Of a stretch of 12,891 nucleotides of DNA, positions 1 through 12,685 are shown in pieces; within the stretch, counting starts at the first letter, position 1; every line of letters starts with the position of its first letter. Position numbers and translations under genes: made by a program. Below the pieces are notes generated by a model. That model was not told the origin of the DNA and searched no databases. It was given only the letters and a program-made list of their open reading frames with translations. The stretch is from a virus, in the UHGV virus genome UHGV-1804406; one strand, given 5' to 3'.

Positions 1-2615
1 TTTTCCTGTATATCTTTCGCCTGCTGCTCCAGCTCGTCGGCATGGTTTTTGATTTCGTCAGCCATGCCAGCAATTTTTTCATTGCTGTCCACTGCGCTCT
101 CAATCAGATCTTTAAACGTAGCGGAGTCTTTGATCTCCTCCAGGATCACATCGGTGATATCGGAAACATCGATGCTGGCCTGACCTCGCACCCAGTCGGT
201 ATACCCGGACTCGTTTCCCGTTCTGTCGACCAGTTGCGCGCGATACCAGAAAATCTGCCCTGCCTTAAGACCCATCTGCTGATATTTGCGCTGCGGATAA
301 GGCACATCGGCCAGCAGCATGGCATCGTCTTCAGTACCGGTCAGGCTGTACTGAATTTCCGTCTTCAGCGTGTCGTCGGTATTCGCCTGGAATCCCCAGT
401 TCAGCTCGATACCGAACACCACGTTTTCAGAGGCGATAAAGCCAACCGGCTTCGGTGGATTGCCCACTTTACCCGTCAGCGTTTTCTCTTCTGAATAGCC
501 CCATCCGGATGAAATTTCTGCGGCATTGATTGCGCGCACCCGCACCAGGTAACGCCCGGCATAAATCCCCGGGACGTCGAATGACGTGGTGGAGGTGCGC
601 GGCACGTTAACCCAGTTCCCGTCGTTGCGGCGCCATTGCGCTTCATAGGCGATAGCGTTCTGCGCCTGGTCCCAGCTCACGCGCATTGTTTCGACGCTGA
701 TATTTTGCTGAACCACGGAAAACGAGCTGATCACGATATTCGCAGGCGGCGACTGGTTGCCCGGCGGGATCACGCTCACCGGCCGTTGGTCAATGATGGC
801 TCCGGTATCGATACGGGCATATTTATCCGGGTCGTGCCATGCGCCGGTAATCGAGAAAGTGCCATCATTGTTATCGGAAACGCTGACAACACGATACTGC
901 TGCGCGTAAAGCTCGTCAGATTCAACCACCCAAACAGCTTCGGCCTGTGGCGTCTCACTGTATGCCGTGGTGACTGTGACTGATTCCCCGTTCACGGCCT
1001 GAATGGTCCTGCTCTGCGACGCTCCGGAAGGCAGGTTGAGAATAAGGCGATCACCTGGTGCTGCATCAGCTACGCGGTCAAGTTTGATAACGCGACCGTT
1101 AACGGCGCTGATGCGGCCGCCCATAACCTTTCCGGAAAGCAGCTCGTCTGCCACGGCGATGATGTAGCCCGGCTGCGGAATGTTTCCGTCCAGCCCGACA
1201 TCAAACGAAACAACGCGATCCTTGTTATTGGTGAGAATACCCCAGCGCCCCTTTCGGTTCGCCTCTGACTGCCTGGTGCAGCCGATGGCTGTCATTTCCA
1301 GCTGATTGAAGCCGTACCGCGCCACCAGCGCCTGCTCAAATACCGGCTCCATCGCGTCGGCATAAGCGTTACCCGGGTCTGACCATGAAACCAGCGCTGT
1401 GGTGTAGCGGCTTTTCGTGGTGCTGCTCGAATAGGTGAAGCGACCGCCAACAACGTTAGCGCGCGTATAGCTGTAATCAACATCGCGCGGCATGTCAGCC
1501 AGGGCCACAATCTGATCCCCGCCCCAGTAGGTCATGCCACGGAAGATAGCGGCAAAATCACGCAGGACTGTGTAGGCGTCGTTCCGGTCCTGAATGTACA
1601 CGTTGCAGGTATAGCGTGGTTCTGTACCGTTGCCCCCTTTGCCGTCTGGTACCATCTGATCACAATACTGAGCAACCTGATAAAGCGTCCATTTATCAAT
1701 ATTCGCAGCGGTCAAACGGTGCCCAAGGCCGAACCGGTCAGAAACAACCAGGTCGTAAAAAATCCACGCAGGGTTATCCGTCCATGCCCACTTAAACGCA
1801 CCGGTCCATGTACCGCTATAAGTGCGGGTTTCAGGGTCGTAGGTATCTGGAACGCGGATAACGCGGCCGCGCGGTTCGCATGAAATTTGAGGAATAGAGC
1901 CGTTGAACTGGCTTGAGTCGAATTCGACGTAGAGCAGCGCGGTGTTCGGGTAGCGCAGTTTGGCGTCAATCACCTCGGTGAAGCTCTGCAGCATCATCGT
2001 GTCGCCGATCTTCGCGCTGTTGGCGTCAGAGGTAATCTTACGCAGACGTATTGTCCATGTGCTGCCAGCCTGCGGTAAATCGATACGGTGGCTGCGCTCA
2101 TAACCAGACGTCGTTTTGCCGGTCACGCTGGTATTGAGTACCGTCTGCCATGTGCCGCCGTCAGTCTGCAGGTCAATCGCATAATTGACCGAGTAACCCA
2201 CCAGATCGCCGTCGTCTTCCTGTTTGAAAAGCGAGGGCCATTTAAGACGCAGGCGAACTGCTGAAAGCTGCGTATTGGTAAACGTGCGCGTCCAGGCTGT
2301 GGCACTTGATACCTCAGTTCCTACGCTGATCTCGTTTTCGGTACCGGGAATACCCTGAATATATTTTTGCGCCTGCGTTCCCGCGCGAAACTCCCACGTT
2401 ACCCCGCTGAAGTTTTGGGAGCCGTCAGCATTCTCCAGCGCTGTTCCGTCCAGGTAGATATCTTTGCCGGTGAGCTGTCCAGCAAACTCCCCTTCCCCAA
2501 GCGCAACGAGGATTTTTGCCTTCGCTACAGATTGCAGATCATCAGGCTGTTCGGTAGGGGTTCGGGAACTTGAGCTGCCGCCCTTGCGGCCTTTTAACAC
2601 TTTATCTGTAGCCAT
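1..2615 (-). CDS. J: Tail tip / host specificity protein J (central tail fibre), N-terminal ~871 codons; C-terminus lies beyond the window start
   Basis: Open minus-strand frame from ATG at 2615..2613 to the window edge (codons end at position 3); not in the ORF track because it runs off the window. Translation begins MATDKVLKGRKGGSSSSRTPTEQ and contains blocks such as YPNTALL..EFDSSQF and QYCDQMVPDGKGG..TEPRYTCNVY that match my recollection of lambda gpJ. It is in the expected position after I. Weak SD; in-frame stop 2651..2649 upstream rules out a longer N-terminus. Confidence 0.9.
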   Translation of the reverse strand, partial: MATDKVLKGRKGGSSSSRTPTEQPDDLQSVAKAKILVALGEGEFAGQLTGKDIYLDGTALENADGSQNFSGVTWEFRAGTQAQKYIQGIPGTENEISVGTEVSSATAWTRTFTNTQLSAVRLRLKWPSLFKQEDDGDLVGYSVNYAIDLQTDGGTWQTVLNTSVTGKTTSGYERSHRIDLPQAGSTWTIRLRKITSDANSAKIGDTMMLQSFTEVIDAKLRYPNTALLYVEFDSSQFNGSIPQISCEPRGRVIRVPDTYDPETRTYSGTWTGAFKWAWTDNPAWIFYDLVVSDRFGLGHRLTAANIDKWTLYQVAQYCDQMVPDGKGGNGTEPRYTCNVYIQDRNDAYTVLRDFAAIFRGMTYWGGDQIVALADMPRDVDYSYTRANVVGGRFTYSSSTTKSRYTTALVSWSDPGNAYADAMEPVFEQALVARYGFNQLEMTAIGCTRQSEANRKGRWGILTNNKDRVVSFDVGLDGNIPQPGYIIAVADELLSGKVMGGRISAVNGRVIKLDRVADAAPGDRLILNLPSGASQSRTIQAVNGESVTVTTAYSETPQAEAVWVVESDELYAQQYRVVSVSDNNDGTFSITGAWHDPDKYARIDTGAIIDQRPVSVIPPGNQSPPANIVISSFSVVQQNISVETMRVSWDQAQNAIAYEAQWRRNDGNWVNVPRTSTTSFDVPGIYAGRYLVRVRAINAAEISSGWGYSEEKTLTGKVGNPPKPVGFIASENVVFGIELNWGFQANTDDTLKTEIQYSLTGTEDDAMLLADVPYPQRKYQQMGLKAGQIFWYRAQLVDRTGNESGYTDWVRGQASIDVSDITDVILEEIKDSATFKDLIESAVDSNEKIAGMADEIKNHADELEQQAKDIQE

Positions 2616-2626
2616 ATTGCGCCCAT

Positions 2627-2649
2627 AAAAAAGCCACCCAAAGGTGGCT
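2627..2649 (-). terminator. Intrinsic-terminator-like hairpin on the minus strand, 11 nt upstream of the J start codon
   Basis: Plus strand reads AAAAAA-GCCACC-CAAA-GGTGGCT; on the minus-strand RNA this is AGCCACC-UUUG-GGUGGCU followed by a U tract of 5-6. Seven-bp stem 2632-2638/2643-2649. No T run follows on the plus strand, so it is unidirectional. Confidence 0.5.
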
Positions 2650-2780
2650 ACTGTCTGAATATCAGGATGTTACAAATCTAAACACCTGGTTATGTTGTGG
2701 ATTCAGCCCGCCAGCGGTGGGACGCTGGTGAACTCATAACAGGTGGAATGGCTGATTACCTCTGGAAAAAGGAGAAGTAA

Positions 2781-3041
2781 ATGGGTTCGATGTTAGAACT
2801 GGAAAAAGAAGTGGCAGAGCTTAAACAAAAGCTGCTTACGCATGAAATTGCAACTGGCCTGATTCTATCGGACATTGTGAAATTACTGGACATTGCCCGG
2901 CCAGGCGCACTCGATGCTCTGACTAAAAACTATCAGGCAGGGCAAGCAAAAATCCCAGAATCAGCTGCACGTAATGATCCGCACACAATTGATGCGTTCA
3001 CGCGCATCCTTAAAGTTTTAGAGGTGGCATCAAAGAAATAA
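2781..3041 (+). CDS. Hypothetical small protein (86 aa) with predicted N-terminal coiled-coil; the only plus-strand gene candidate, inside the I-J insert
   Basis: ATG at 2781 preceded by AAGGAG with a 6-nt spacer (aaaaAGGAGaagtaaATG). 86 codons, MGSMLELEKEVAELKQKLL... The segment looks AT-richer than the flanking tail genes by eye. No minus-strand ORF of any length covers it (stops in all three minus frames between 2650 and 3010). Function unknown. Confidence 0.55.
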   Translation: MGSMLELEKEVAELKQKLLTHEIATGLILSDIVKLLDIARPGALDALTKNYQAGQAKIPESAARNDPHTIDAFTRILKVLEVASKK

Positions 3042-3327
3042 TTAAATCGAGCTTTTCATTGAATATTTCTTCATGAGTTTTAGCGGCCTCATTCTGGGCC
3101 GCTGTTACCGTTCCACCGAAAACCCCTGCATCACCCTGCGAAATCTTTCCCTCCTTTACTCGCAAACTCCAGCCATTACCGGTGATGGTCGAATGAATAG
3201 CGCCACCTGGCCGTAGTGCGTTCTGAATGGCGGAATTGACGATTGCCGGGTTATGCAGCTCTGCTATCTCCACCTGCAGGCTCGCGATGGTTGCCTCAAG
3301 CATGCTCATGCGCTCTTCTAAAGTCAT
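3010..3327 (-). CDS. Hypothetical small protein (105 aa), N-terminal Leu/Glu-rich helix followed by a Gly-rich segment; lies between I and J in the late operon
   Basis: ATG at 3327..3325 preceded by AGGAGA (caggagaaaactATG), 37 nt downstream of the I stop. Translation MTLEERMSMLEATIASLQVEIAELHNPAIVNSAIQNALRPGGAIHSTITGNGWSLRVKEGK...LKL. The track's longer 184-aa form (to 3564) would overlap I out of frame and lacks an SD. Its 3' end overlaps the plus ORF convergently over 3010..3041. Confidence 0.5.
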   Translation of the reverse strand: MTLEERMSMLEATIASLQVEIAELHNPAIVNSAIQNALRPGGAIHSTITGNGWSLRVKEGKISQGDAGVFGGTVTAAQNEAAKTHEEIFNEKLDLIISLMPPLKL

Positions 3328-3364
3328 AGTTTTCTCCTGCCTATCAGCTAATAAGTTAATTAAT

Positions 3365-3955
3365 TTACTGTTGATCTTCGACATAAATCCCGGCAGAAAT
3401 AATCGCACCGCCGATTTGCCGACGACCATAAAGAAGCGGTACCGGATAGCCCTGCGCGGCGGTGTTGGTGACTCCACCGAACGCGTATGAGGCGCGGTTA
3501 TCTGAACTCTGTTTGCTGGCCAGCCCCGCTGGTTGAGGGGAAAGCATCTGAACAACCCCGCCAATCATCATTGCGGCACCGAATTTGTATAAGAATGGTG
3601 ATGCCGCAGCCCAGGGTGTGAAATTAAGCACCGCCCCAACGGCAACCAGAACTGCACCAAGTATTGTCTGGAGTAATCCGGCCTTTTTGCTCCCGATAAT
3701 CACCGGGACAATGCGAATGACATCGCCGGTGACCGGGTAACCCAGGTCATCAACACCAATATTCTTTTTCCCTTTGAATACTGAATAAGTGAGACCACGG
3801 CGTTGGCTGGAAATCATAAACTGCTCAAAGCCCGGTATAGTCTTTGCCAGCGCAACACTCGCTTCGTTCACGCGGGAAATCAGGCGATGGTGAACTTTAC
3901 CGAATGTTTTCCCGAGCACGCCGCCAAGCTCAATGCGGGTCATTACTTCCTGCAT
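3365..3955 (-). CDS. I: Tail assembly protein I
   Basis: 196-aa ORF in the lambda I position, directly after K. SD AGGTG upstream of ATG 3955. Start overlaps the K stop (TAA 3945..3943) by 13 nt; an alternative in-frame ATG at 3943 is possible. Confidence 0.8.
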   Translation of the reverse strand: MQEVMTRIELGGVLGKTFGKVHHRLISRVNEASVALAKTIPGFEQFMISSQRRGLTYSVFKGKKNIGVDDLGYPVTGDVIRIVPVIIGSKKAGLLQTILGAVLVAVGAVLNFTPWAAASPFLYKFGAAMMIGGVVQMLSPQPAGLASKQSSDNRASYAFGGVTNTAAQGYPVPLLYGRRQIGGAIISAGIYVEDQQ

Positions 3956-4674
3956 GTTTCACCTGCCATTACATCTTTATAGCGAACGATCTTCATTGTG
4001 CGCTCCTGCCAGTATCCGCCATAAGGAACACGTTGACTCAGATGCCCGTAAAGATGGTGCAGCAGCATGTTACCCTCCAGTAAAATCCCGGCATGATTCC
4101 ACTTATCGGCCTGCACCTGCATGATGACGAGGTCCCCTTCCTGAGGCGGACCATCAAACTCCCTGAATCCGCACTCGTACCAGCACTCCTGATAGAAATT
4201 GTCCGGGTAGTCGTTTTCCCACCAGGGATAATCCACCCGGTAATCGTGGAGCTCGATACAGTGGGTCTGCCGGAAATAGCTCATTACCAGACCCCAGCAA
4301 TCGAAGTGGCCAAGCACGAACGGACGCTCCAGCAATGGCAGCTCCCCGCGTGGCTGAATGGTACGTAAATCCCCCTCTGGCCAGCTCACAATATGCCAGG
4401 GCAGCAGCGTTGCATCACACTGCGCCTTATCCAGCTCGCTGGCCTGCGTCGTCGCATCAGGATGGCTGTGAACAATGGCCACCACCGTCCCCCAGTCTTC
4501 TGCCGCTGCGTAATCTTCGGGGGACAGGTGAAAATGTTCAGTCGGCTCTGCTGCGAGATTACGACAGGGAAAATAGCGCTCAACCCGGCTTTTCTGTGCC
4601 ACCACGCCGCAGCACTCTCGCGGATATTCCGCTGCAGCGTGTGCCATGATGGCATCAATGGTTTTCTGGCGCAT
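3943..4674 (-). CDS. K: Tail assembly protein K, with MPN/JAMM-type motif and NlpC/P60-like Cys/His region
   Basis: Start chosen at ATG 4674 (MRQKTIDAIMAHAAAEYPRECCGVV) because it has a strong SD (cAGGAGctgat) and sits 1 nt after the L stop (TGA 4678..4676); the track's upstream start 4713 lies inside L. Contains the JAMM-like HSHPD...S..D motif and conserved Cys/His further on, as in lambda gpK. Confidence 0.85.
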   Translation of the reverse strand: MRQKTIDAIMAHAAAEYPRECCGVVAQKSRVERYFPCRNLAAEPTEHFHLSPEDYAAAEDWGTVVAIVHSHPDATTQASELDKAQCDATLLPWHIVSWPEGDLRTIQPRGELPLLERPFVLGHFDCWGLVMSYFRQTHCIELHDYRVDYPWWENDYPDNFYQECWYECGFREFDGPPQEGDLVIMQVQADKWNHAGILLEGNMLLHHLYGHLSQRVPYGGYWQERTMKIVRYKDVMAGETCRK

Positions 4675-4675
4675 A

Positions 4676-5431
4676 TCAGCTCCTGATAAGAGATGTACCG
4701 GGGAAACCGCCAAACGGCAGCTCGTTGCTGTCTCCGTGCCGGAGCTTGCAGGCCGTCAGCGTGCCGTTGCAGACATCCAGCGATGGATCGTCAACCGGAT
4801 TATTGTTTTTGTCGAAATAGCGCGTTCCGGCATAGTCGCAGCCGTCGCCGGTCCGGTACTTGTTCCGGATGCACCAGCTGCATAACGAATGCAGCTGCCG
4901 CGTGGGTATCATCTGGCCCTGTAAATCCATCGGACTGGAAAGCGTAAATTCAACAGATTCATCCGTCTCGGTGCTTCTGGCATCGATATAAAAGACCTTC
5001 AGCTTTTCCTGTGACGGGTCTGCAGTGGGATTGCCCTGCGGAAAATTTCTGGCGTCCAGATACTGTGCCAGCGTGTCGTGGATACTCACTTTCGCCTGCA
5101 GCAGATCGTCATACGCCAGACAGAGCGCTGAGATCGAGCTGTCCAGGTTCGCCACACTCAGTTTTGGCTGTGGACTGGTACCGTCCGTAGTCGCTTCAAT
5201 ACCCTCAACCTGACACGGCCAGGCTTTATACTCCTCCCCCTGCCACCAGATGGACTTCGCCGGAAGTTTATTCTCATCCCCGCCTGCAGCCTCAATCTCT
5301 TCCGGGGTATGCGCGATATTATGTGCGTGGAAGCGGAGTACATCTGACATACCGAACGCTGTGCCATCGACAGAAAAAAGCCGGACTTCATTGCCCGGCT
5401 CGAGTTTTTGATAATCAGCATTAAGACTCAT
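4676..5431 (-). CDS. L: Minor tail protein L (Cys-rich, lambda gpL-like)
   Basis: 251-aa ORF. Its ATG (5431..5429) overlaps the M stop (5430..5428) in an ATGA arrangement, indicating translational coupling. C-terminal Cys cluster (CSWC...C...C...C) as in lambda gpL, which binds an Fe-S cluster. Confidence 0.85.
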   Translation of the reverse strand: MSLNADYQKLEPGNEVRLFSVDGTAFGMSDVLRFHAHNIAHTPEEIEAAGGDENKLPAKSIWWQGEEYKAWPCQVEGIEATTDGTSPQPKLSVANLDSSISALCLAYDDLLQAKVSIHDTLAQYLDARNFPQGNPTADPSQEKLKVFYIDARSTETDESVEFTLSSPMDLQGQMIPTRQLHSLCSWCIRNKYRTGDGCDYAGTRYFDKNNNPVDDPSLDVCNGTLTACKLRHGDSNELPFGGFPGTSLIRS

Positions 5432-5775
5432 GGTGCAAATGCCTGTTCAAACGTTGCGGTTACGGTTATCACTTTTACGTTTTTAACCACCTTTTTGAGC
5501 GTGTCAGCCTCGACACGCCACAGCGCGGTATCGCCGAAAGGCGGAGTGAAAATAAACGACTTCACTTTATGCCGCCGAAGGAAGGCATGAATTTCATTCG
5601 CTGTAGTCGGATCCCCTGAGAAGGAAAATTCATAGGTGCGAATTTCATCATTCAGACCTGAGCCGCTCACCTGTGCGTAACCGTCGCCGAACTGGACCTT
5701 CCTGACGGTGTCTTTGCTTCCCTCTGTGGGCTGGCTGGAGACCTTAATACCCCAGGAGAATGTTTCTATCGTCAT
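5428..5775 (-). CDS. M: Minor tail protein M
   Basis: 115-aa ORF 5 nt after the H stop (TAA 5783..5781). Contains an RKVQFGDGY block matching my recollection of lambda gpM (RKVRFGDGY). Synteny H-M-L. Confidence 0.85.
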   Translation of the reverse strand: MTIETFSWGIKVSSQPTEGSKDTVRKVQFGDGYAQVSGSGLNDEIRTYEFSFSGDPTTANEIHAFLRRHKVKSFIFTPPFGDTALWRVEADTLKKVVKNVKVITVTATFEQAFAP

Positions 5776-5780
5776 AACTG

Positions 5781-8297
5781 TTACCTGCGATTGTTCGCAT
5801 TCCAGATAAGCCCACCGGGCTGGATTGCCCTGGCGATACCATCGTTGACAGATTTGTTAATCACCTGCTGATACGCCTTACCCAGCCTGTCTCCGTCATT
5901 TTGCTGCTGTGCGCCACCGGAGGCATTCTCGACGGTCACAGGCGCGTACACGCTCACCCCGAAAGGTGCTGCAGCGGGACCTGTGCCACTGCCCCCGACA
6001 AGCCCTCCTGTGGCGTACCCTTTCATCATCCGGTAAAGGTTGCCGACGCCGATCCGACTGGTAGCCTCTTTGGTGAAAACAAATTCGCCACGGTGAACGA
6101 CACCTGCGGGTTCATATTTCCCACCCGAACCGGTGAATCCCCCGCTGGCAAACCCCAGCGCCGTGGAGGCTGAATCTACCAGTCCGGTCATTGCCTGCTT
6201 CAGCAGAATTTGTGTCAGCATGGAGAGCGTGGAGCGGGTAAAGTCAGCCCAGTCAGCCTTTCCGCGTGTCAGCATGTCTGCCATATTCTGCCCGATGCCA
6301 TCAAACGTACTGGTGGCAACCGACTTCATCTGGCCATAAGCATCTGAAGCGGAATCAACATAATCTGCCCATGCGGATTTGGCCCCGGATTGCCAGTCGT
6401 CCCGCAGCTTATCCTGCTCGGCGTAATACGCCTGCAGCGCCTGCAGCTCATTCTGATAACCAGCGTCGTTCTCCGAACCGCCACCATTTTTCCAGCCCTG
6501 AAGAAGCTGGTCCTCCTCATTGCGGCGTTGTGCTGCACGACTGCTCATACCAGCACTTTCCGCAAGGGCTCGGGTTTTCTCGCCGATCTGCGTGACGTAT
6601 TTTTGGGACGTATCCTGCAGGCGGTTAAGCCGCTCCTGCGCCACTATCTGATCGCCAAGCTTCGCATTCAGCTCCGCACGGGAAAGCACCTCACTTTTAC
6701 TGGCCAGCAGGGATTTTTCCTCAGCAGAAAGCGTTCGGGTCTTCGCGGCCTCTTCCAGAACCGTAAAGCGGGACTGCTGACGCCACAGCTCCTGACGCTG
6801 CTGGCTGATGGTGTCATTGATGCTCTTATGCTCCTGCAGGGTGCGCAGCTGTGTCTGTAGCTCCAGCGTCTGGGCACTGGCCGTATCGGTGGCACGGGCA
6901 CCTGCGGGGGTTCTGATTGCCGGGGTCTTCTTCGGCTTTTTAAGGGTGTCTTCGTACTCTTTTTTCGCGGCAGCCAGGTTGATGTTGTAGTCAGCCTGGA
7001 GGATCCGCCCCTCTTTCAGCGCCTTGTTGAGCTCGCTCTGCCTGGCCGTGTATTTCTCCAGTGCCGTCTGCGTTTTGGCATAGTTTGCCTGTGCCTGCGC
7101 AGCATACTTCTGGCGATCCGATTCCGCAGCCGCTTCGCGCGATGCATTCTCTTCGTTCGCCCTGGCAATTCCCGCCTGCTGCTGCGCCATATCCAGCGCA
7201 AGCCTGGCCGTTTCGCGGTCATTCCAGAATCGGGCGCGAGCCTCATCATTGACATATCGGTCACCTTTACGCAGGTTCCAGATTTCATCAGCTTTTTTGA
7301 ACGCGGCTTCGGCTTTTGCCACCATCTCCTGCGCGGTGTCAGGTCGGCCAATATCGAGGGCTGCATCCCACATCGACTTGAAGGCGCGCTTCAGGGAGTC
7401 CGCTGAAGACTCTATCGTCCCCATATTGTCGCGGATGGCTTTGGTCTGATCGTTGAATCCGGCTGTAGCCGCCTCGTTAGCCGCCTGCAGTGCGCCAGCC
7501 TCATCACCGGCACGCTGCAGCTGCGCCACATGGGCAATCTGTTCTGCGGTAACGTTATGGAACTGCTGGGCCATCGCGATCAGGCCCGATGTCGGGTCAG
7601 TTGCGAGCTTGCCGTAGGCTGCAGCGACTTTCTCCACCGGCACGCCGGAGGCATCAGTAAACCGCGCCACCGCCTGGCTCATTTCATCAAAGCGCGAGCC
7701 AGTACGCACACCTGCATTGATAAGCTCGGTCAGGGCTTCACTGGTCTGGTTGAACGTTAGCCCCGCTGCCTGTCCGTTCCGCGCCAGTGCCAGCATGCGG
7801 TCAGCTGTCAGTCCGGCTGTGTTCCCCGACAGTACCAGCGTTTTGTTGAAATCAGACAGAGTGGAAGAGCCCTGGTACCAGGCATAGAACAACGCGCCCG
7901 TTGCAACGGACAATGCACCAATGCCGACCATCAACGGGGAAATCGTCCCCAGTAACGCCCGGAATGTCGGAATGATCCCGCCAAAGGAGTCCTTAACCTG
8001 ACCGCCCTGCTGAAGCAGAATCAGCCAGGGGTTCTGCCCACCCGCCAGCTGCGTAGCCACGTCAGTAAACTGCGCCGGGAGCATACGCATCGCTGCGTTA
8101 TACTGACCCACTGAAATACCGGCCTTACGCGCGGCGTTCTCCTGGCGGCTAAAGGACTGCTGGATCCGTAGCGCTTCGTCGTTCGCCGCGCTGCCAGTCT
8201 GCTTTAATTCTTTTTTGACGTAGTTAAGCTGCTCGTTAAATTTCGTCGAGTTAACGTCAAGGTTAACGACCAGATCACCCACTGCCGTCTGGGCCAT
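5781..8297 (-). CDS. H: Tail tape measure protein H
   Basis: 838-aa ORF with SD AGGAGG. Long colinear blocks match recalled lambda gpH (GISVGQYNAAMRMLPAQFTDVATQLAGGQNPWLILLQQGGQVKDSFGG; C-terminal GGKYEPAGVVHRGEFVFTKEATSRIGVGNLYRMMKGYATGG). Central region is Ala/Gln/Glu-rich and helical. Start overlaps the T-frame 3' end by 23 nt. Confidence 0.95.
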   Translation of the reverse strand: MAQTAVGDLVVNLDVNSTKFNEQLNYVKKELKQTGSAANDEALRIQQSFSRQENAARKAGISVGQYNAAMRMLPAQFTDVATQLAGGQNPWLILLQQGGQVKDSFGGIIPTFRALLGTISPLMVGIGALSVATGALFYAWYQGSSTLSDFNKTLVLSGNTAGLTADRMLALARNGQAAGLTFNQTSEALTELINAGVRTGSRFDEMSQAVARFTDASGVPVEKVAAAYGKLATDPTSGLIAMAQQFHNVTAEQIAHVAQLQRAGDEAGALQAANEAATAGFNDQTKAIRDNMGTIESSADSLKRAFKSMWDAALDIGRPDTAQEMVAKAEAAFKKADEIWNLRKGDRYVNDEARARFWNDRETARLALDMAQQQAGIARANEENASREAAAESDRQKYAAQAQANYAKTQTALEKYTARQSELNKALKEGRILQADYNINLAAAKKEYEDTLKKPKKTPAIRTPAGARATDTASAQTLELQTQLRTLQEHKSINDTISQQRQELWRQQSRFTVLEEAAKTRTLSAEEKSLLASKSEVLSRAELNAKLGDQIVAQERLNRLQDTSQKYVTQIGEKTRALAESAGMSSRAAQRRNEEDQLLQGWKNGGGSENDAGYQNELQALQAYYAEQDKLRDDWQSGAKSAWADYVDSASDAYGQMKSVATSTFDGIGQNMADMLTRGKADWADFTRSTLSMLTQILLKQAMTGLVDSASTALGFASGGFTGSGGKYEPAGVVHRGEFVFTKEATSRIGVGNLYRMMKGYATGGLVGGSGTGPAAAPFGVSVYAPVTVENASGGAQQQNDGDRLGKAYQQVINKSVNDGIARAIQPGGLIWNANNRR

Positions 8298-9026: not shown

Positions 9027-9042
9027 AATTACTCCGGGGGAA

Positions 9043-9058
9043 CGGGGCTTTCGCCCCG
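9043..9058 (-). promoter_or_regulatory. GC-only stem-loop (CGGGGC-GAAA-GCCCCG on the mRNA) between the V stop and the G Shine-Dalgarno
   Basis: Six G:C pairs with a GAAA tetraloop, 4 nt after the V stop codon; not followed by a U tract. Confidence 0.5.
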
Positions 9059-9062
9059 GTTA

Positions 9063-11565: not shown

Positions 11566-11583
11566 GTGGCCCGACAGGGCCAC
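11566..11583 (-). promoter_or_regulatory. Stem-loop (GUGGCCC-UGUC-GGGCCAC on the mRNA) between the E stop and the FI Shine-Dalgarno
   Basis: Seven-bp stem 11566-11572/11577-11583 with a 4-nt loop, 10 nt after the E stop codon; no U tract. Confidence 0.5.
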
Positions 11584-11592
11584 TGGGGGAAG

Positions 11593-12631: not shown

Positions 12632-12655
12632 AAAAAAAGCCGCGCAAGCGGCTTT
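12632..12655 (-). terminator. Terminator-like hairpin in the D-E intergenic region (A7-GCCGC-GCAA-GCGGC-T4 on the plus strand; hairpin followed by U7 on the minus-strand RNA)
   Basis: GC stem 12639-12643/12648-12652 extended by A:U pairs and flanked by an A run upstream and T run downstream, so it is terminator-like in both orientations. Lies between the D stop (12686) and the E start (12618). Confidence 0.45.
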
Positions 12656-12685
12656 TATGAATGATGATGGTTGTAGAAATGCGGA

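Follow-up and report, generated by a model that had tools for sequence, protein, structure and literature searches.

The window, by which we mean the whole 12,891-nt stretch of virus genome UHGV-1804406 analysed here, carries a run of late tail genes on the minus strand that ends in J, the gene for the tail tip and host specificity protein (Table 1). J is recognized by its matches to Pfam FNIII-A_GpJ (1e-50) and Phage-tail_3 and to the PHROG 'central tail fiber J'. The gap between I and J measures 749 nt and is occupied by two convergent, overlapping accessory open reading frames (ORFs), a conserved non-coding region and, immediately upstream of J, the hairpin that is the subject of this analysis.

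Table 1. Features of the window around the I-J junction and in the neighbouring late genes
Feature	Position	Strand	Basis and remarks
Gene J, 5' part (tail tip / host specificity protein)	1..2615	-	ATG 2615-2613; the gene continues beyond the left edge of the window
J translation initiation region, GGG (weak Shine-Dalgarno) plus CGCAAU	2616..2624	-	Sequence
U-tract UUUUUAU, flush with the stem	2625..2631	-	Sequence and terminator scan
Putative terminator hairpin AGCCACC-UUUG-GGUGGCU	2632..2649	-	Sequence, scan, fold, covariation, annotation of relatives
Conserved non-coding region, tentatively leader/promoter of the reverse gene	2650..2747	+	Abuts the hairpin; comparative alignment
Mini-ORF MADYLWKKEK	2748..2780	+	Stop TAA abuts the ATG of the 86-aa ORF
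Reverse accessory ORF, 86 aa	2781..3041	+	phrog_23209, full length, 5.5e-59; position of HK97 gene 23 'reverse moron'
Forward accessory ORF, 105 aa	3010..3327	-	Good Shine-Dalgarno AGGAG; phrog_22477, 2.5e-73; position of HK97 gene 22 'moron'
Tail assembly gene I	3955..3365	-	phrog_32 tail assembly protein, 3.6e-73; adjoins J in insert-less relatives
Late gene K	4713..3943	-	
Late gene L	5431..4676	-	
Late gene M	5775..5428	-	
Late gene H	8297..5781	-	
Unit before major capsid gene E, AAAAGCCGC-UUGC-GCGGCUUUU-UUUACGGGAAAAAUCUAUG	~12656..12635	-	Fold and sequence

Read on the minus strand, the hairpin consists of a 5' arm, AGCCACC (A2649-C2643), a four-nucleotide loop, UUUG (2642-2639), and a 3' arm, GGUGGCU (G2638-U2632), which form seven pairs, five of them G-C. 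The U-tract that follows (U2631-U2627, A2626, U2625) is succeeded by GGGCGCAAU and then by the J ATG. The first-pass annotation of this DNA had described a 7-bp GC-rich stem with a U tract on the late-gene strand, 11 nt before the J ATG, and a weak Shine-Dalgarno sequence for J. The sequence bears out this description: the distance is correct when counted from the end of the U run, and GGG at 2624-2622 supplies the sole Shine-Dalgarno-like bases before J. Together with the preceding AU, the initiation region makes up a motif, UAUGGGCGCAAU-AUG, whose conservation across genera exceeds that of the J coding sequence. Folding and terminator prediction agree with the description as well, in that a simple scan of the window lists the site as terminator-like and the isolated hairpin folds at -12.2 kcal/mol. 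Within its 81-nt context in the window the folding z-score is -2.18, and both the minimum free energy and the centroid folds retain the terminator stem with no competing helix. The opposite strand lacks a U-tract, and the signal is therefore unidirectional. As judged from these predictions, the element displays all of the sequence hallmarks of an intrinsic (Rho-independent) terminator on the late-gene strand.

Is the hairpin a product of selection or of chance? Taken by itself, the window makes a weak case for more than chance, because it contains 17 terminator-like sites compared with 13.1 +/- 4.1 in shuffled sequences and because the z-score is only -2.18. The comparison that we regard as decisive comes from related loci, drawn from two samples: 80 viral contigs whose J is nearly identical at its N-terminus, and 80 loci, one genome per species, retrieved with an alignment of the J N-termini of the window, N15, lambda and HK97. 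We scored a hairpin wherever the 60 nt before the J start held a stem of 5 bp or longer and, after it, 8 nucleotides with no fewer than 5 U. Such a hairpin is present at 147 of 155 related loci and in 3.8% of 6010 control windows taken from the same loci; the remaining eight loci carry single-mismatch or lambda-type variants of the same hairpin. The hosts of these loci include Escherichia, Enterobacter, Klebsiella, Rahnella, Erwinia, Pectobacterium, Symbiopectobacterium and Limnobaculum. The distance from the stem end to the ATG is 15-21 nt everywhere with one exception (25 nt, locus L159), and the tetraloop is UUCG in most relatives.

While the stem sequence varies greatly among these loci, its pairing is kept. 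We count 61-67 distinct stem variants, for example GGCCACC/GGUGGCU, ACCGCC/GGCGGU, GGGGCGC/GCGUCCC and AACCUCC/GGAGGUU, as well as GCCCGC/GCGGGC, AGCCGC/GCGGCU and CCUGC/GCAGG. In a plain, unfitted MAFFT alignment of 88 distinct sequences, 90.2% of the stem cells are paired, compared with 36-66% when the partner is slid out of register; 26 cells show changes on both sides of the pair, a number reached in none of 500 shuffles, and the columns of the T-run are invariant over all 88 homologous sequences. Among the wobble cells there are 17 G.U in the J sense against 5 A.C. Since a G.U in the J sense would read A.C on the other strand, the object under selection is an RNA hairpin on the late transcript. 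The hairpin thus exceeds chance both in its frequency relative to the controls and in its compensatory changes, and sequence comparison across many genera indicates that its structure is maintained by selection as a J-sense RNA. It is not indispensable, because two distant tail lineages (L215 and L291, with J 31-36% identical) have a tight I-J junction without a hairpin.

The hairpin is an ordinary, previously annotated element and not a new one, because its homologue already carries a label in four named phages: 'terminator, putative' in HK97 (AF069529, 15107..15129), 'putative rho-indep. transcription terminator' in N15 (AF064539, stem_loop 15307..15330), 'terminator' in HK75 (HM173637, 14460..14483) and 'rho-independent terminator' in HK225 (JQ086371, 15508..15532). 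In its structural module the window shares 94% identity with mEp237 and about 90% with N15 and HK225, and its J 5' end plus hairpin matches HK75, mEpX1 and others at 98% identity. In all four annotated phages, whose terminators are putative annotations, the element sits in the same place between I (or an I-J insert) and J, with an identical or near-identical stem (AGCCACC...GGUGGCU), the same U-tract and the same UAUGG(G/A)CGC(A/G)AU-AUG. HK97 shares the layout of the insert as well, with gene 22 ('moron') and gene 23 ('reverse moron'); the two accessory ORFs of the window are, however, unrelated in sequence to gp22 and gp23 of HK97 and HK022, and only the leader and the hairpin are common to them. 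Lambda (NC_001416) likewise has a hairpin between the I stop at 15444 and the J start at 15505, AACCGCC-UGCG-GGCGGUU, followed by a U-rich tail, UUUAUGGAG and the J AUG. Two stem positions differ from those of the window through compensatory changes. Lambda also differs in its interrupted U-tract (UUUUGUCAUUU) and its stronger GGAG Shine-Dalgarno sequence, and its I-J hairpin has no annotation in the NC_001416 record examined.

How is the hairpin related to the DNA inserted between I and J? Among the 152 loci at which I could be located, 129 (including those of mEp237, N15 and HK75) have a bare I-J spacer of 50-65 nt and carry the hairpin, while the remaining 23 have inserts of 317-1497 nt, every one of them upstream of the hairpin. 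The hairpin is therefore independent of the insert, and the suggestion that phages without the insert might also lack the hairpin does not hold. The similarity of the window to the insert-less HK75 and mEpX1 stops at position 2648, the outermost stem base, and the hairpin thus bounds the variable region as its fixed right-hand edge, in agreement with the earlier reading of the structure as a cassette boundary. At loci with a forward accessory ORF only, the stop codon of that ORF lies 50-62 nt from the J ATG, just ahead of the hairpin and at the point where I stops in bare junctions, from which it follows that the hairpin would serve as the terminator of the ORF. In the window, too, no other late-strand terminator comes between the 105-aa forward ORF and the hairpin. 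Taken together, these alignments identify the hairpin edge as a fixed docking edge of what is evidently an accessory-gene insertion hot spot in tail operons.

The insert resembles a moron, an element that consists of a promoter, a gene and a terminator placed between late genes and that is expressed from the prophage (Juhala et al. 2000; reviewed by Cumby, Davidson and Maxwell 2012, PMC3594210). As in morons, extra DNA stands between genes that are adjacent in relatives, a factor-independent terminator is predicted at its downstream end, and the GC content is low (0.44-0.47 at 2600-3200 compared with about 0.55 in J), as expected for a moron (PMC3594210). The likeness has its limits: loci without an insert have the terminator too, the two genes of the cassette converge and overlap, with a conserved leader on the reverse one, and a consensus scan of 2600-3400 on both strands found no sigma-70-like promoter, including for the forward ORF. 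Both insert ORFs belong to PHROGs of unknown function, and comparison with Pfam, PADLOC and NCBIfam returned nothing significant, the best match being YbaB-like at 0.023, far below the cut-off. Our literature searches found nothing on the 'reverse moron' or on HK022 srb.

The hairpin could instead be a scar of past moron gain and loss, retained for being harmless under the late antiterminator Q and acting mainly as shared sequence for cassette exchange. Mosaic breakpoints do fall at or inside the hairpin, with the similarity to HK75 and mEpX1 ending at its outermost base and a break inside the loop at one locus (L026), and upstream of M the identity of the hairpin correlates with that of the cassette. 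A neutral scar would nevertheless be expected to decay, whereas here many compensatory changes have preserved the pairing, and the U-tract does not vary among genera that range from Escherichia to Pectobacterium and Limnobaculum. We therefore consider a mere relic or recombination joint improbable, at roughly one-tenth weight among the readings considered here.

The region that abuts the hairpin on its upstream side is itself conserved. In about 17 I-J inserts a small reverse ORF is preceded by a conserved non-coding region of 120-140 nt that abuts the hairpin; aligned over 16 loci from about 10 genera, it contains an invariant AACATCCTGATATT (2658-2671 in the window, minus-strand reading) and a covarying CCAGYG/CRCUGG stem. 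In the window it is 90% identical to HK022 and HK97 although the adjoining ORFs are unrelated. Because its wobble pairs and the conserved start MADYLW fit the plus strand, we tentatively assign it as the 5' leader of the reverse gene. MADYLW, which in the window begins the separate mini-ORF, is the fused N-terminus of the reverse ORF at other loci, and in the distant lineage L291 a MADYLW reverse ORF is paired with an ORF ('MTLEQR...') homologous to the 105-aa forward ORF. A search of the leader by eye for a sigma-70 promoter of the reverse gene turned up weak candidates (TTGCnn-15 nt-TAATGT/TATGTT), none of them convincing. An exact-match scan for AACATCCTGATATT returned mostly chance matches; among the 120 loci examined, TTTTTAT follows the motif within 90 nt at 18, and inspection identified 13 of these 18 as the leader-hairpin module.

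The same conserved stretch of some 120 nt, which is non-coding in the J sense, could instead be the body of an Hfq-binding-type small RNA transcribed in the J sense, with the hairpin as its 3' end. On the minus strand it gives weak full-length Rfam alignments to rseX and MicA. These scores, however, fall far below threshold (26.5 against 50 bits for rseX, E=0.62, and 20.5 against 41 for MicA; E-values 0.6-1.6). At gathering thresholds Rfam found no match in the whole window, and a permissive scan of 2560-3400 gave sub-threshold hits to rseX, MicA and IS102 alone, which we judge to be due to chance or to the terminator. Furthermore, the scan detected no J-sense promoter, the wobble pairs and the MADYLW start point to the opposite strand, and 129 loci have the hairpin without such a region upstream. 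On these grounds we rejected a J-sense small RNA, to which we would give only the slightest probability.

Similar units occur elsewhere in late operons. In both N15 and HK97 the late operon contains a number of hairpins annotated as terminator-like, several of which share the layout hairpin-U7-AUGGG-N4-8-AUG: in HK97 it is found before the protease gene, H (after the gp15 moron), I (after the gp20 moron) and J, and in N15 before E and J. In the window and in N15 the related layout hairpin-U7-(A/C)GGG-AUG precedes the major capsid gene E. Hairpins also lie after E and after V in the window, and these have no U-tracts, so that the U-tract before J is a specific feature. In other phages, the leader and hairpin occur as a module directly before M (5 contigs) and before L (3 contigs). 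Since the H-M junction of the window is 5 nt and its M-L junction overlaps, the hairpin evidently came with the cassette at the M and L sites. From one lineage of M proteins (L240 type) 80 loci were sampled, which yielded 45 upstream variants. In all 40 variants displayed, the upstream DNA, itself varied, closes with a hairpin whose sequence differs from case to case, while the U7-AUGGAGYAAAUAUG after it is constant. A CCTGATATT leader lies within 120 nt upstream at 15 of the 80 loci, and those displayed have an AGCCACC-type hairpin.

The first-pass annotation had raised, as the first of several readings, an effect on dosage, in which a fixed fraction of lytic late transcripts would stop at the hairpin and leave mRNA for J and the genes downstream below that for I and the genes upstream. 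The terminator-grade signal, the need for J in few copies and its weak Shine-Dalgarno sequence are all in keeping with such an attenuator. Against it, the hairpin layout is not specific to low-copy genes, because it also stands before E, where the equivalent hairpin-U7-ACGGG-AUG (in the window and in N15) lies upstream of every high-copy gene, and before the HK97 protease gene, H and I. In lambda, moreover, the ratios of late-gene expression are said to be set mainly by translation initiation, as Sampson et al. reportedly described in PNAS in 1988, which we count against an attenuator. Intra-operon terminators are known from lambdoid late operons such as those of phages L and P22 (Zaworski et al. 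2020, PMC8022706); Casjens and colleagues consider two candidate roles for them, partial termination, which speaks for an attenuator, and the stopping of non-antiterminated transcription, and state that the roles 'are not known' (PMC8022706). Against an attenuator, finally, the nearest relative of the window, mEp237, encodes Q, and polymerase loaded with Q, its RNA exit channel narrowed, is termination-resistant through the late operon (PMC12360218). Low J dosage through partial termination is consequently unlikely, although we rate it marginally above a mere relic.

The hairpin might also act after transcription, either as a 3' stabiliser of the upstream segment following cleavage in the AU-rich tract or as part of the ribosome-loading region of J. 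In the latter case the hairpin and the U-tract, as an S1-binding enhancer, may together offset the weak Shine-Dalgarno sequence of J. The fixed distance of 15-21 nt to the ATG speaks for a role of this kind, as does the extreme conservation of the U7-AUGGGCGCAAU-AUG block, beyond that of the J coding sequence; the same unit travels before M and L, and the other intercistronic hairpins of the operon, without U-tracts, look stabiliser-like. Yet a stabiliser needs no flush U-tract, which is invariant here, and the fixed spacing may simply be inherited, the bare I-J spacer being 50-65 nt. Disruption of the hairpin in silico, moreover, left the predicted accessibility of positions -14..+12 unchanged (0.536 vs 0.527, 104 distinct contexts, p=0.18). 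We accordingly regard a post-transcriptional element as unlikely overall, while ranking it ahead of both a dosage effect and a relic. The same computation, which compared the predicted probability that -14..+12 is unpaired when the 5' arm is present or removed, led us to reject the hairpin as an insulator of the J ribosome-binding region.

We propose that the hairpin is an intra-operon or moron-type intrinsic terminator, at which polymerase lacking Q would stop in the prophage and which lytic transcription would pass, a proposal to which we give somewhat better than even chances. A true intrinsic terminator is favoured by the sequence hallmarks, by the invariant flush U-tract, by selection on the sense strand and by the repeated association with cassettes. 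First, in the repressed prophage, polymerase that has not been loaded with Q would terminate at the hairpin. Such polymerase could have started in the cassette, at the forward 105-aa ORF or at divergent or spurious start sites close to the reverse leader, or have leaked in from upstream, and its termination would keep J and the downstream tail genes silent. Second, after induction, Q-modified polymerase would pass the hairpin, and ribosomes would start on J at its own weak initiation region, 11 nt further on. The sequences themselves show the structure, its conservation, its strand, its independence from the insert and its association with cassettes; termination at this site, read-through under Q and a benefit to the phage are inferred. 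Q control of the operon is presumed by analogy: Q lies outside the window and is taken from the relatives. Ending moron transcripts cannot be the only role of the hairpin, because 129 insert-less loci keep it with no known promoter upstream. A comparable situation is that of phages L and P22, in which terminator-like hairpins also lie within one Q-dependent late operon; their virion module, however, is P22-type, whereas the element described here occupies the I-J junction in tails of the lambda/N15/HK97 type and has broad covariation in its support. In the literature on lambdoid late operons we found no 3'-end mapping, including for the I-J junction.

A broader possibility, which we put forward tentatively and consider less probable than termination of Q-less transcription as such, is that the hairpin, the U-tract and UAUGGR-N-AUG together constitute a portable 'stop-and-restart' junction, with the reverse leader as an undescribed cis-regulatory element. 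Such a junction would end non-antiterminated transcription and at once provide a ribosome start for the next tail gene, so that cassettes could be plugged into translationally coupled junctions (I-J, H-M and M-L) with tail assembly unbroken. The leader, for its part, would be a structured element of about 100 nt with a AACATCCTGATATT box, common to many unrelated small reverse genes in Enterobacterales prophages.

As a single feature the hairpin matters little, since it fits the textbook terminators of Q-antiterminated late operons and of moron ends. What the comparison adds is evidence of structural selection across genera, the independence of the hairpin from the insert and its place as a fixed docking edge for cargo genes. 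Also of modest novelty is the module of reverse-gene leader and terminator, apparently portable, that is found at three different tail junctions. Because lambda and HK97 carry homologous hairpins, the question can be addressed directly in model phages. If the portable terminator and restart and the leader hold, they would help to explain how prophages gain cargo genes and silence or express them inside essential operons, and they would offer a simple sequence signature by which cargo genes could be found.

What accompanies the accessory genes found between the tail genes of these phages? In different phages, a single module consisting of a reverse ORF, a leader, an AGCCACC-type hairpin, a U-tract, and UAUGGRGCAAAUAUG occupies three tail-gene junctions: before M (related loci L176, L192, L194, L240, and L260), before L (L189, L215, and L291), and before J (L224, L239, L242, and L271). 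The leader, a non-coding segment of 120-140 nt, is conserved across approximately ten genera, and the ORFs downstream of it are unrelated to one another; it is also present in L042, L055, L096, L104, L110, L113, L119, L131, L135, L137, L139, L141, L150, and L154. It contains an invariant box, AACATCCTGATATT (window 2671..2658), and a covarying stem, CCAGYG/CRCUGG, and its CAGCC/GGCUG helix has a predicted pairing with the AUGGCUGA start region. The leader matched no Rfam family. This segment probably serves many "reverse morons", the annotation given to HK97 gene 23, as a common promoter or 5' leader.

The two ORFs inserted between I and J in the window are convergent and overlap by 32 nt. L291 encodes a homologous forward ORF, MTLEQR..., partnered with a MADYLW reverse ORF, and forward ORFs resembling that of the window also occur in L096, L135, and L260. 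The cassette ORFs found no match in Pfam, PADLOC, or NCBIfam, and the pair looks like a recurring two-gene cassette to which these databases assign no function. Ahead of the reverse ORF lies the mini-ORF MADYLWKKEK. Its abutting stop codon, together with the in-frame fusions that give the reverse ORFs of L104, L240, and L291 a MADYLW or MADYLC N-terminus, suggests either translational coupling or a conserved start that would be joined to variable payloads.

Features of the window outside the J hairpin itself
Feature	Position	Strand	Location
Terminator-like hairpin, AAAAGCCGC-UUGC-GCGGCUUUU then UUUACGGGAAAAAUCUAUG	~12635-12656	-	between D and E
GC-rich intercistronic hairpin GUGGCCC-UGUC-GGGCCAC, no U-tract	~11566-11592	-	after major capsid gene
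GC-rich intercistronic hairpin CGGGGC-GAAA-GCCCCG, no U-tract	~9027-9062	-	after major tail gene V
Terminator-like hairpin, 9-bp stem (6 G-C), then UUUUCU	5378-5401	-	within gene L
Forward 105-aa ORF, MTLEER..., coiled-coil-like	3010-3327	-	
Reverse 86-aa ORF	2781-3041	+	
Mini-ORF MADYLWKKEK	2748-2780	+	stop codon adjoins ATG of 86-aa ORF
Conserved non-coding leader	2650-2780	+	between J hairpin and reverse ORF

Late-strand hairpins are also found elsewhere in the window. The D-E hairpin immediately precedes the major capsid gene E in a layout matching that of the J hairpin; it was overlooked by a simple scan because its stem takes up part of the U run, and the equivalent site in N15 carries a putative terminator annotation. 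The hairpins after the major capsid gene and after V each lie just upstream of the following gene's Shine-Dalgarno sequence. Stem-loops are annotated at both sites in N15, and we regard the two as candidate mRNA stabilisers. The top terminator-like match on the late strand falls in the first 20 codons of L, just past the M/L overlap.

Two relatives carry further insertions. In an IMG/VR contig (L026, 2459-2503), an IS3-like element with two reverse ORFs has inserted at the I-J junction. Because homology breaks off within the loop of the hairpin, this relative has lost the original 5' arm to replacement but keeps the 3' arm together with the U-tract and the start of J. An E. coli prophage (L005, NZ_LR536431) whose I-J insert is that of the window (97.8% identical) has an extra KilA-N-domain gene and an extra hypothetical gene between K and I (13556-14792); this junction is a second accessory-gene site of the same tail operon.

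Finally, the presence of the same module at three junctions implies that the cassette travels with its terminator and with a start region for the gene downstream.
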